The position numbers are program-made. DNA of 22,142 bases, from UHGV virus genome UHGV-0075672. One strand, written 5' to 3'. This stretch comes from a virus. The number at the start of each line of letters is the position of its first letter. The stretch's first letter is position 1. Positions 1 through 3,000 of this stretch are shown here, piece by piece.

Positions 1-3000
1 CTGGTCGCTGGTCGCTGGTCGCTGGTCGCTGGTCGCTGGTCGCTGGTCGCTGGTCGCTGGTCTGGCAGCATAAAATCATCCTTTTATGAAAATCAACGTT
101 TTTTGAGCACTCGCACACAAAAAATTACCGCATTGGTTGCAACGACAACCTGCATTTTGCGGAGCATATGACAAATAAAGTACGGGTGCGTTGAGGATGC
201 CAGACACATCAGAGGTGGCGGGAGATTACTCCCCTGCCTGGTCTCTTACTTCTCAGATTCGTAGTCTACGAAGACAGCGACCTCCGTCTGGCCGGTTCGG
301 ATTCGTACCTCGCAGAGGTCTTTCCTCGTTACCAGTGCCGTCACTATGACGGTTAAACAGATGACGATCAGGGCGATTAACATCGCCTTTTGCTGCTTCA
401 TAGCCTGCTTCTCCTTGCCTTTCGGCACGTAAGAGGCTAACCTAAGTTTGTAAGTCATAGATTTGGCCTCAGATTAATGTTAAGCGTCCTGCAAGACGCG
501 TAATGTTAACTGGGGCTTTTCTCTGTCTGCCTTACGGCTGCATGCCCGAGGCAGACAGCCTCAAGCACCCGCAGCTATTCTACAGTAAAAACTCGCGCTT
601 TCAATTTCCCGCACGTCCGGCAAACTGACTGGCCTGTGATCCTGATGGTTCACGCTCAACGTACCTGTCCATTTCCAGCTTTACTCCCTGCATGATCAAC
701 ATCCCCTCAATAACACCTTCTGCTTTTTGCAGTACCCGCCCGGCCCAGCAATCAGAGCGCCCATGCTTACGGCCCAGTGACATAAGCGTCATCCCGAACA
801 CATAATAATCATACAGAAAATCATGCAAATCGCTGTTGTTGACGTTCAGTTGCGCCATGCAATTGCTGATAATCAGCGCATCGTCATCGGTACACTGAGG
901 CCGTGATTTAACCTTTGACGGGATCAGCCCCTTAAATCCGGCGGCAATGGGCGACCAGCTCACATCCTCATGATTATTGGCCACCCATGCGCCCCAGCGT
1001 TCAAGCACCTGCTGAATATCACGCATCAGAGTCTTTACCCTTATCCCATCCACGATGGACCATAAGGACACCGTTGACGACGGCGTGCCGTTTGCCTTCT
1101 TTATCGCCAATATATTTTCTGACCGTGGCACGATTACAGTTCAGTATTCGGGCCACTTCGGTCTGATTTCCATATGCCTCAACAAGCATGTCAGGAATGA
1201 TTTTTACGGTGAACGTCATGCGGCCTCACTTCTGCTGTTTCGCAGGCCTTTAAGTTTCTGTTGATACTCTGCCTTGATCGCCTTGCACTCTTCGACAGTC
1301 CAGCGGTGGCGACTATGGTTTGATTCGATTTCGTCTACTGCTTCCTGCCCGATGCGGTTAATCAGTTCGACGCGATACGGAACGAGATTTCCGCTTTTGT
1401 ATTGGTTACACACCACGCATTGCTTATGGATATTGCGTTCATCAAATCTGAGCTGAGGTGCCGCAGCTGTTGTACGGTAATGGCCAGCATCCCACTGGGC
1501 TGAATCTAACGTCCCGCATGAAACACACGGCAAATGACGGTCCCGCTCCCTGATATAAGCATTCACAGCCTGTTGTGCCTGCTTAATCCAGTAACTGCGG
1601 GGCTGTAAGTCCCTCCTGCGCGCTTTCAGCTTGTCTGCCTGCTCTTTTGCTGAAGTTATCGCCTTTTCTTTTCTGACCAGTTCCAGTGCGCACTGACCAC
1701 AGCAAACTTTCTGATATGAGCGGAACGGCACAAACGAGGAGCCGCACACTTTGCATTTTTTGGGTTTACGTTGCTTCATCATCACCTCAGAAAAACGACA
1801 GCAGGCGGTTATTCAGTTCAGGGCTGTTTGAGCGCCCAAACACATGCTTTAACGCGGCATTAATCATTGCGTTGTAGCAACGTTCAAACTCATCCTGATC
1901 CATATTCGCGTAACTCAGGCTTTTTGCCCGATATCTCACCTCGCCTCTTATGGTTGTGACCACATCATAGAACCCGGCAAGAATTGTCAGATTTTTACGA
2001 AACTCATCAAACTGCGTCGCTTCATCAGAGAATTCGTATCCAGCATGTTCAGCGCACCAGTACTGAAAGCAGAAATTAAGAAAAGCAAACATCTTCCGGT
2101 GAAAAGATGGGTTACGGGTAAGTTTTGCTTCCAGTGTATACAGCTCACCGTTTTTAAATTTTGCCAGTCGGGGTAAATCGCGCTCATACGCCGGTACAAA
2201 TACGCCATTAGCCGCCTTGATCATCTCTATTTCCATCAGGCAGCCTCCGCTTTGAATTTGCGCGTCAACACATGTTCACGGGCTTCACACCCCTGAATGA
2301 GCATGTCGTTAAAATCCGGCAAGTCAGGCCAGCGAATGCTGACCTTCTCAACGTCATTACGACTCATGAGATTCTTATGCCCACATTTAAAGGCAGCCGC
2401 CAGACCTGCGCCGTGCTCATCATTGTCTGCAAAGATAATCAGGTGATTAACGCCTGGTGGCGCAATAAACTTCTCCATAAAACCGGAGTTCATTGTTGAC
2501 CACACATTGCAGCGGAAGATTTGACGGCATGAAAGCGCAGTTTCGATACCCTCGGCTATCCCCAGAGTGGACGACACCGGATACAGGCGTATTGCCACCG
2601 ATTTGGCATGCTGCAAACCAGGCAACTCCTGTAGCGCAGTCATTTTTTTAGCCGCCTCTACATTCGCCTTGCGATCACCATCCAGCAACGTACGATGCAG
2701 ATAGCAAAGAGAACCTTTGTCATCTGTTGCAATGGCGTAAATTGCCTGATATTCGCGCCCGCTGGCGATCTGACGGTCACAGAAACGCACGGATTCGGTC
2801 GGTAACTGGAGTATTCCCCTCCCATGCAGGTACGCCTCACCTGTTGTGCCCCGCAGACACGGGAGTCCGGCAAACTTATCCATGACCCGCTCCCGTTCTC
2901 TGGCAATATCCGTTACAGTGCGTCTGGCATGCCCTCTCTTCCAGGTATTACCAACCAGTCGATCGACTTCATCGCACAGATCAACCCAGGGCTTACCCGT

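Follow-up and report, generated by a model that had tools for sequence, protein, structure and literature searches.

A hypervariable heptanucleotide tract inside the 5' end of a predicted BcgI-like restriction-modification gene of Escherichia coli prophages: a probable phase-variation switch

Introduction

The virus genome UHGV-0075672, a stretch of 22,142 nucleotides that is referred to here as the window, begins within a heptanucleotide array, and on the minus strand an ATG at position 71 (ATG71) leads directly into it. This raises the question of what a repeat whose unit is not a multiple of three is doing immediately behind a start codon. Our analysis indicates that the array is the clipped end of a hypervariable tract located inside the 5' end of a gene carried by Escherichia coli prophages, which is predicted to encode the A subunit of a BcgI-like (type IIB/IIG) restriction-modification (R-M) system, and that slipped-strand phase variation of this gene is the likely reading of the locus.

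Results

The array lies directly behind a well-placed start codon

Tandem Repeats Finder reported a period-7 array at positions 1-62 of the window, with the consensus CTGGTCG, 8.9 copies, 100% matches and a score of 124. Read on the minus strand, the left edge is AAAAGGATGATTTTATGCTGCCAGACCAG(CGACCAG)8 followed by the window end, and these eight perfect CGACCAG units (1-56, minus strand) are the contig-end-clipped, promoter-proximal end of a hypervariable heptanucleotide tract coding for (RPATSDQ)n. A perfect 7-mer array of 56-62 nt cannot arise by chance, and the same array, at other lengths, recurs in 30 complete records that are independent of each other. Since 7 and 3 have no common factor, the array encodes the same cyclic heptapeptide in each minus-strand frame, and none of the three contains a stop codon; the plus strand is likewise open, as (LVAGRWS)n. 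The CGACCAG unit itself has no ATG, GTG or TTG.

From ATG71, the frame reads MLPDQ(RPATSDQ)n and meets no stop before the edge of the window. Start codon (71-69) included, the R-M gene opens with five codons for MLPDQ (ATGCTGCCAGACCAG, 57-71, minus strand), which were read directly and are conserved in all three alleles found in E. coli. A Shine-Dalgarno (SD) sequence, AAGGA, also read directly, lies 7 nt 5' of ATG71 (79-83, minus strand) and is conserved in records L151, L152 and L167. In addition, the database proteins P0006 and P0009 begin MLPDQRPATSDQ and continue in frame through to the end of the enzyme. A sequence-only reading of the window had described the heptamer array as a minus-strand heptapeptide repeat open to the edge, entered from ATG71 with a plausible ribosome-binding site. 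Both parts held, the first by the repeat finder and direct reading, the second by the well-spaced AAGGA kept in all alleles and by the two proteins that start there.

Two other start codons were considered as the main start and rejected. An ATG located 8 nt 5' of ATG71 in frame +1 (ATGATTTTATG, 77-79, minus strand) overlaps the SD sequence and is the codon from which P0010 is annotated; it lacks SD spacing, and it is lost in three alleles, being ATA in L135 and L138 and ACG in L149. Because of this overlap and these losses, it would support at most weak expression in a second phase. A GTG 47 nt upstream, chosen in L003 by the Prokaryotic Genome Annotation Pipeline (PGAP), has no SD spacing either. 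The third frame meets a TGA at 78-76, just ahead of the array.

In every complete record, the array runs on into a gene of ~682 codons, and this is followed by a specificity-subunit (S) gene. Extending the contig through its relatives, a check that had been proposed along with the initial description, thus showed the array opening into a full R-M gene, with stops only in the two wrong frames.

The tract is part of the coding region

Most copies of the enzyme are annotated in RefSeq from a TTG located 30 codons past the array (WP_001178557.1). If this were the true start, the array would lie in an untranslated leader, the enzyme would be made from an internal TTG or GTG as a product of 654 or 570 aa, its frame relative to ATG71 would be irrelevant, and the length of the array would be neutral or would tune transcription or mRNA stability. 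The uniform distribution of frames reported below is what an irrelevant frame would give, and no promoter was found near the ATG. Four observations argue against such a leader. First, the L003-type allele has CTG in place of this TTG, and its next in-frame ATG, GTG or TTG is codon 113, leaving 112 codons with no start-type codon. Second, the stretch of 29 codons that separates this TTG from the array is conserved at the protein level; changes between alleles are mostly synonymous (7 synonymous and 5 non-synonymous codon changes, omega 0.14-0.20). Third, repeat-free orthologues of 677-686 aa and ~72% identity, found in Neisseria, Providencia and a Methylophilaceae genome, have Met-initiated N-termini, M..SKKSNKSIEPNIADLANGWLKSY (Met-(2-6 residues)-KSIEPNIADLANGWLKSY), that align with the E. 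coli residues immediately past the array, i.e., with those same 29 codons. Fourth, each of the three E. coli alleles has a well-spaced SD sequence and ATG immediately before its array, and the repeat unit offers no start codon. These four observations indicate that the RefSeq TTG start is wrong, and therefore that the tract is an (RPATSDQ)n insertion into a conserved enzyme, placed after the initiator codon and before about residue 5. As in a contingency locus, a tract with a non-triplet unit sits between ATG71 and the conserved N-terminus, and an untranslated array is quite unlikely.

The opposite strand has its own annotation. In nearly all records, PGAP places an open reading frame (ORF) on the plus strand over the array, and its (LVAGRWS)n product is named 'YXWGXW repeat-containing protein' or 'hypothetical protein' (relatives of window positions 1-171, e.g., L002 5605-6171). 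We regard it as very improbable that this is the real product of the locus: the ORF amounts to the opposite-strand repeat plus flanking read-through, its length tracks that of the array, it is antisense to the conserved coding N-terminus and to the SD sequence and ATG, and its annotation flips between 'hypothetical' and the name of a low-complexity family. Both the opposite-strand repeat proteins and the internal TTG/GTG starts of the enzyme look like annotation artefacts caused by the tract.

Tract length varies among near-identical loci and sets the frame

The array locus was carried by 30 of 5,426 complete genomes, and the tract was read from the sequence itself at 30 loci, 29 of them in complete chromosomes and one in a phage. 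These reads replaced copy numbers derived from coordinates, which were dropped because several arrays hold imperfect units. The loci contained 15, 22, 22, 29, 30, 49, 53, 55, 55, 57, 63, 63, 63, 64, 65, ~72, ~72, 75, 78, 79, 81, 82 (four records), 88, ~92, ~93, 98 and 119 units. The 82-unit records are L004, L009, L132 and L154 (PhiR12_3/ECOR13, G6/7, UCPROB-002 and O111:H8 7-32 9A), and they span two flank backgrounds that are ~40 substitutions apart in 3 kb; two sibling pairs are exactly 7 units apart, 22 versus 29 and 75 versus 82. Loci with 0 mismatches over ~6 kb of flank had 30, 55, 57 and 63 units in one set, 82, ~92 and 98 in another, and 82 and ~72 in a third, and isolates from the same study also differed (OkiPb 22/29/22, UCPROB 75/82, O111:H8 55/57/82), indicating that the tract changes much faster than point substitutions accumulate.

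Since the window and many other contigs break within the array, and some long-read assemblies have obvious errors inside it, the array and its length differences could be regarded as products of sequencing or assembly. The clearest case is L159 (E. coli 2015C-3121), where a run of ~60 C inside the array is almost certainly a long-read consensus error, so that even 'complete' assemblies can mis-render the tract. Odd units, either one base short or the poly-C run, were present in 6/30 arrays and are most likely errors of this kind. The arrays of the other 24/30 loci, all in complete long-read assemblies, were perfect and had clean junctions on both sides, and lengths differ by tens of units, far beyond consensus error; we therefore give an artefactual origin practically no credence.

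Relative to ATG71, the enzyme was in frame 0 in 8 loci, +1 in 9 and +2 in 13; for 29 of these loci (8:8:13), comparison with a uniform distribution gave a chi-square p = 0.42. The in-frame strains include G8, DETEC-S792, strain 48, OkiPb01692 and JNEC-KY173, and G6/7 and OkiPb01714 are siblings that are out of frame. When arrays are perfect, ATG71 is joined to the enzyme only if the number of units n = 2 (mod 3), and both wrong frames stop 1-6 codons past the array. Polymorphism among otherwise near-identical strains and a frame that changes with tract length, with premature stops in the wrong frames, are both features of a contingency locus. The initial description had offered the locus as a candidate phase-variable gene, a proposal that an invariant copy number across strains would have undermined. 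The 15-119 units among the 30 loci, the variation on identical 6-kb flanks, the three frames, the wrong-frame stops and the position of the array within the coding sequence all sustain it.

The same frame counts could also describe a decaying prophage remnant, in which an unstable variable-number tandem repeat (VNTR) has inactivated the gene and no adaptive switching occurs: 22/30 loci are out of frame with ATG71, the S gene is pseudogenised in one lineage, and hok, the gene upstream, is frameshifted in several relatives. Decay of this sort sits poorly with the state of the enzyme gene. Its body was intact, with 681-682 codons, in 17/17 loci fetched with enough flank; two alleles that both bear the array and have reached saturation at synonymous sites (dS ~1.5) gave a dN/dS of ~0.05; and in-frame copies were found in every allele group. 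A gene that is intact and under strong constraint although most genomes have it out of frame, together with a tract kept across deep divergence, therefore argues for a contingency locus rather than a pseudogene or a neutral VNTR, and we consider the remnant explanation unlikely.

The gene is predicted to encode a fused nuclease-methyltransferase

The enzyme is annotated as an 'HsdM family class I SAM-dependent methyltransferase' and, in the phage record, as BcgI alpha-chain-like. It matched Pfam N6_Mtase (5e-21), and its sequence also has FxGxG-like and NPPY motifs. A putative nuclease part is suggested by a sub-threshold match to VRR_NUC at query residues 31-87, which carries RPD...EYK. Over its full length, the enzyme matched the PADLOC profile REase_MTase_IIG ('Type IIG restriction enzyme-methyltransferase') at 2e-244, while Type I profiles gave 9e-26; the S partner matched Methylase_S and the PADLOC profile Specificity_II ('Type II specificity subunit'). 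The Type I R-M system implied by the 'HsdM family' annotation was ruled out by the far better match to the IIG profile, by an N-terminus ~150-200 residues longer than that of HsdM, and by the lack of an adjacent hsdR, which was not annotated in any locus inspected. As in type IIB systems, a separate S-like subunit gene adjoins A with no HsdR. The enzyme also showed 28% identity over 97% of its length to a gene of Staphylococcus phage phi-42. A sequence search of the PDB with the enzyme gave no match. The AlphaFold model, built on a shallow alignment of 22 sequences, was poor (predicted local distance difference test, pLDDT, 57; predicted template modelling score, pTM, 0.37), and Foldseek with this model returned HsdM, BsaXI and BpuSI at TM ~0.2, weak support at most. 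From its sequence, the locus is best described as a BcgI-like type IIB system, with a predicted fused R-M A subunit and an S subunit.

The same repeat is found on an unrelated methyltransferase

We scanned contigs for five repeat units, using one genome per species. Among the matches listed, most came from GC-rich taxa in which the heptamer was apparently intergenic, incidental or unrelated, and only that of Pectobacterium was informative. In Pectobacterium carotovorum DSM 30168 (NZ_FQWI01000003.1; L018 6503-7662), an SD sequence and an ATG lead into (CGACCAG)17 and, in the same frame, an adenine methyltransferase of the EcoRI family (Pfam 8e-131). Its product starts MSTSDQ(RPATSDQ)5, and the methylase gene adjoins a toxin-antitoxin pair of the RHH/GNAT type. 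That the same repeat sits at the corresponding position of a second, unrelated DNA methyltransferase gene speaks for a role as a switch. Separately, the Planctomycetota metagenome-assembled genome maxbin.317 (JALHRW01) contains dozens of CGACCAG or CGGCCAG arrays, which are spread over many of its contigs and frequently lie at their ends (L012, L015, L021-L024, L032, L045, L047, L049 and others); they look like a repeat family of the whole genome that has no relation to the E. coli locus.

The R-M genes travel with hok in a prophage cassette

The first 620 bases of the window matched over their full length 30 complete E. coli chromosomes and one phage, PhiR12_3 (from ECOR13). In all of these matches, the minus-strand order was the Q antiterminator, hok/sok, the array, the enzyme gene and the S-subunit gene. 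Downstream (3') of the S gene there are a methylase remnant, tRNA genes Ile-Arg-Arg and a nanS-p esterase, which are typical items of the late region. These are then followed by stx2b in strain 04-00955 (L003 619-1854) and by stx1c in 2013C-3033 (L008 1-423), which places the cassette between Q and the toxin genes in some Shiga toxin (Stx) phages; the hok/R-M cassette, including the hypervariable tract, lengthens the Q-to-stx interval by ~3-4 kb. The third allele, with ~87% amino-acid identity, is located in a different lambdoid prophage, within the nin region upstream of Q, and it again has the order hok, array-A and S, with 27-63 units. Thus, the array has been kept in all three diverged alleles and at two different prophage positions.

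In some lineages, the cassette has a mosaic make-up and is in partial decay. Among relatives, the S gene is variable, encoding 361, 309 or 417 aa or being split or pseudogenised (L001 2640-3752, L005 847-1959, L131-L133), and hok is annotated as frameshifted in L003, L134, L135, L158-L160 and L166.

Within the window, the antiterminator Q gene of the lambdoid prophage (601-1026, minus strand) puts the cassette at the start of the late region. Just downstream of Q, a promoter-like TTGAAA-16-TAGAAT (577-604, minus strand), identified by consensus match only, may be a hok promoter or a late promoter. An Rfam 'sok antitoxin' match, the hok/sok regulatory region, covers 396-570 (minus strand; 118 bits, E 9e-27), and hok itself, encoding a Hok/Gef toxin and forming the upstream member of the hok/array-enzyme/S cassette, occupies 246-401 (minus strand). 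The leader that extends from the hok stop to ATG71 (72-245, minus strand) includes the conserved 3' region of the hok mRNA. In this leader, a promoter scan found no sigma-70 site, and no conserved -35/-10 pair was seen by eye; for this reason, we infer read-through into the enzyme gene from the hok or late promoter (604-577).

The window ends at its right edge in another tandem repeat, (CAGTTCAGC)x7, with a 9-nt unit (22080-22142, plus strand); this repeat is in frame, codes for ...DSVQPVQPVQP... and belongs to an ORF from an ATG at 21891 that is annotated DUF1627 in relatives. With the heptamer array at one end and this repeat at the other, the window is a short-read contig bounded by two tandem repeats. 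Among IMG/VR contigs having both the start and the array, 7/15 end inside the tract, and the best database cluster, with 841 'partial' members, begins at the array junction. The suspicion, raised from the position of the array at the edge, that the assembly had broken at a repeat was thus borne out. Elsewhere in the prophage, there were gathering-level Rfam matches to isrK (74 bits) and an adjacent C4 antisense RNA (71 bits) at 19659-19846 (plus strand), and to sRNA-Xcc1 (66 bits) at 10532-10620 (plus strand).

Discussion

The model that we favor, and hold to be probably correct on the sequence data, is one in which the R-M system travels as a hok/A/S cassette in E. coli lambdoid prophages, including some Stx phages, and in which translation from ATG71 would pass through (CGACCAG)n as MLPDQ(RPATSDQ)n into an enzyme of ~682 residues. 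This enzyme would combine an N-terminal nuclease-like region with an N6-adenine methyltransferase domain bearing the NPPY motif. Slippage during replication would add or remove 7-nt units, presumably reversibly, and each unit would shift the frame by +1 or -1. Protein levels would then be ON at n = 2 (mod 3), and in the other two phases translation would stop 1-6 codons past the array, with one wrong phase perhaps expressing weakly from the poorly placed second ATG. As nuclease and methylase are predicted to be one polypeptide, an active enzyme would switch restriction and modification together, and the outcome would be a lysogen population mixed for defence and for a methylation mark.

Several points weigh against this model. 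Only 8/30 loci, and 5/23 perfect arrays among 29 of these loci, are in frame with ATG71, a low number that fits random phase and equally fits a relaxed need for expression, and the frame calls of the six arrays with odd units are unreliable because these units are probably long-read errors. The arrays are far longer than classical contingency tracts, with a median of ~72 units and up to 833 bp, and ON proteins would bear a low-complexity N-terminal tail of 120-280 residues. The recurrence of n = 82 in four records argues against extreme instability. To these points we add the missing sigma-70 site between hok and ATG71, and a nuclease domain predicted from profile matches and a motif, with a poor structure model. 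Finally, strains of the O111:H8/E2855 group have a split or pseudogenised S gene, so that their R-M system may be inactive.

Switching by repeat tracts is well known among R-M genes. In the Type III mod phasevarions of Haemophilus, Neisseria, Helicobacter and Moraxella, tetra- or pentanucleotide tracts in the methyltransferase ORF cause stochastic ON/OFF methylation; a non-triplet tract within a methyltransferase ORF is shared with the locus described here, and the type of enzyme differs. The hsdM genes of H. influenzae (CGAGA tract) and Mannheimia haemolytica (ACAGC[10-40]) are switched by simple sequence repeats (SSRs) (PMC7383803). They share with the E. coli locus a non-triplet tract in the 5' coding region of the N6-adenine methyltransferase gene of an R-M system, a length that varies among isolates, and ON/OFF switching that is predicted or shown. 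However, their products are M subunits of Type I systems, in which HsdR is a separate protein, and the genes lie on the chromosomes of host-adapted respiratory pathogens, whereas the E. coli tract is a heptamer of up to 119 units, on a gene for a predicted fused nuclease-methylase with only an S partner, carried by lambdoid/Stx prophages. That survey of Type I SSRs mentions neither Escherichia nor heptanucleotide tracts (PMC7383803). Campylobacter jejuni Cj0031 is a phase-variable Type IIG R-M enzyme (PMC4889913) and, like the E. coli enzyme as predicted, has restriction and modification in a single polypeptide and a repeat tract within the ORF. In contrast, the tract of Cj0031 is a polyG homopolymer, and the protein has its own specificity domain and is chromosomally encoded, whereas the E. 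coli enzyme relies on an S subunit encoded by another gene, and its long tract of 7-nt units adjoins the start codon.

Sau42I of phi42 is a BcgI-like R-M system of a temperate S. aureus phage (Dempsey 2005, as cited in PMC6532042). The E. coli system resembles BcgI, Sau42I and BsaXI in having an A subunit that joins a nuclease, predicted in our case, to a gamma-type N6-adenine methylase, with an S-like B subunit, and it resembles Sau42I in being carried by a temperate phage. To our knowledge, no repeat tract or phase variation has been reported for BcgI, Sau42I or BsaXI. Three Type I systems that are constitutive in E. coli were without regulatory effect (PMC8287963). For phase variation in this species, a 2025 review names DNA inversion (fim) and Dam/epigenetic switches (pap, sfa) alone, tying repeat-tract contingency loci to Haemophilus, Neisseria, Campylobacter and Helicobacter (PMC11868660). 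Searching literature text for the repeat 14-mers and RPATSDQ, we found no paper. The locus was likewise not described in the literature found on BcgI and Stx prophages, SSR methyltransferases, heptanucleotide R-M systems and Type IIG SSRs; one paper on multilocus VNTR analysis gave no repeat sequences, so the tract may already be a typing locus. The switch on this E. coli prophage gene is thus apparently undescribed. What sets it apart from the known cases is the BcgI-like class with its separate S subunit, the heptamer unit, the length of the tract and the E. coli lambdoid/Stx prophage as its carrier.

Two further ideas are speculative, and we give them little probability. Type IIB enzymes of the BcgI kind are efficient cutters of unmodified DNA, and for this reason an OFF-to-ON slip in an unmethylated lysogen would cause self-restriction, double-strand breaks and an SOS response. 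The tract could then be a stochastic trigger of prophage induction, with toxin release in Stx1c and Stx2b phages, and not only a defence switch. Separately, a start codon followed by (CGACCAG)n could be a portable switch that has become attached to DNA-methyltransferase genes of unrelated kinds, as its occurrence on the Pectobacterium EcoRI-family methylase would suggest.

Short-read assemblies break at the tract, and annotation is misled by it, with spurious 'YXWGXW repeat' proteins on the opposite strand and enzymes given truncated starts. Used as a VNTR marker, the tract would discriminate very finely among strains that have it. The carriers of the cassette are temperate phages, Stx1c and Stx2b phages among them, and in the latter it lies between Q and the toxin genes. 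If the proposed switch is real, lysogens of these phages would be mixed for a defence system and for a methylation mark, which would bear on phage and plasmid uptake, on methylome-based typing and possibly on prophage stability.

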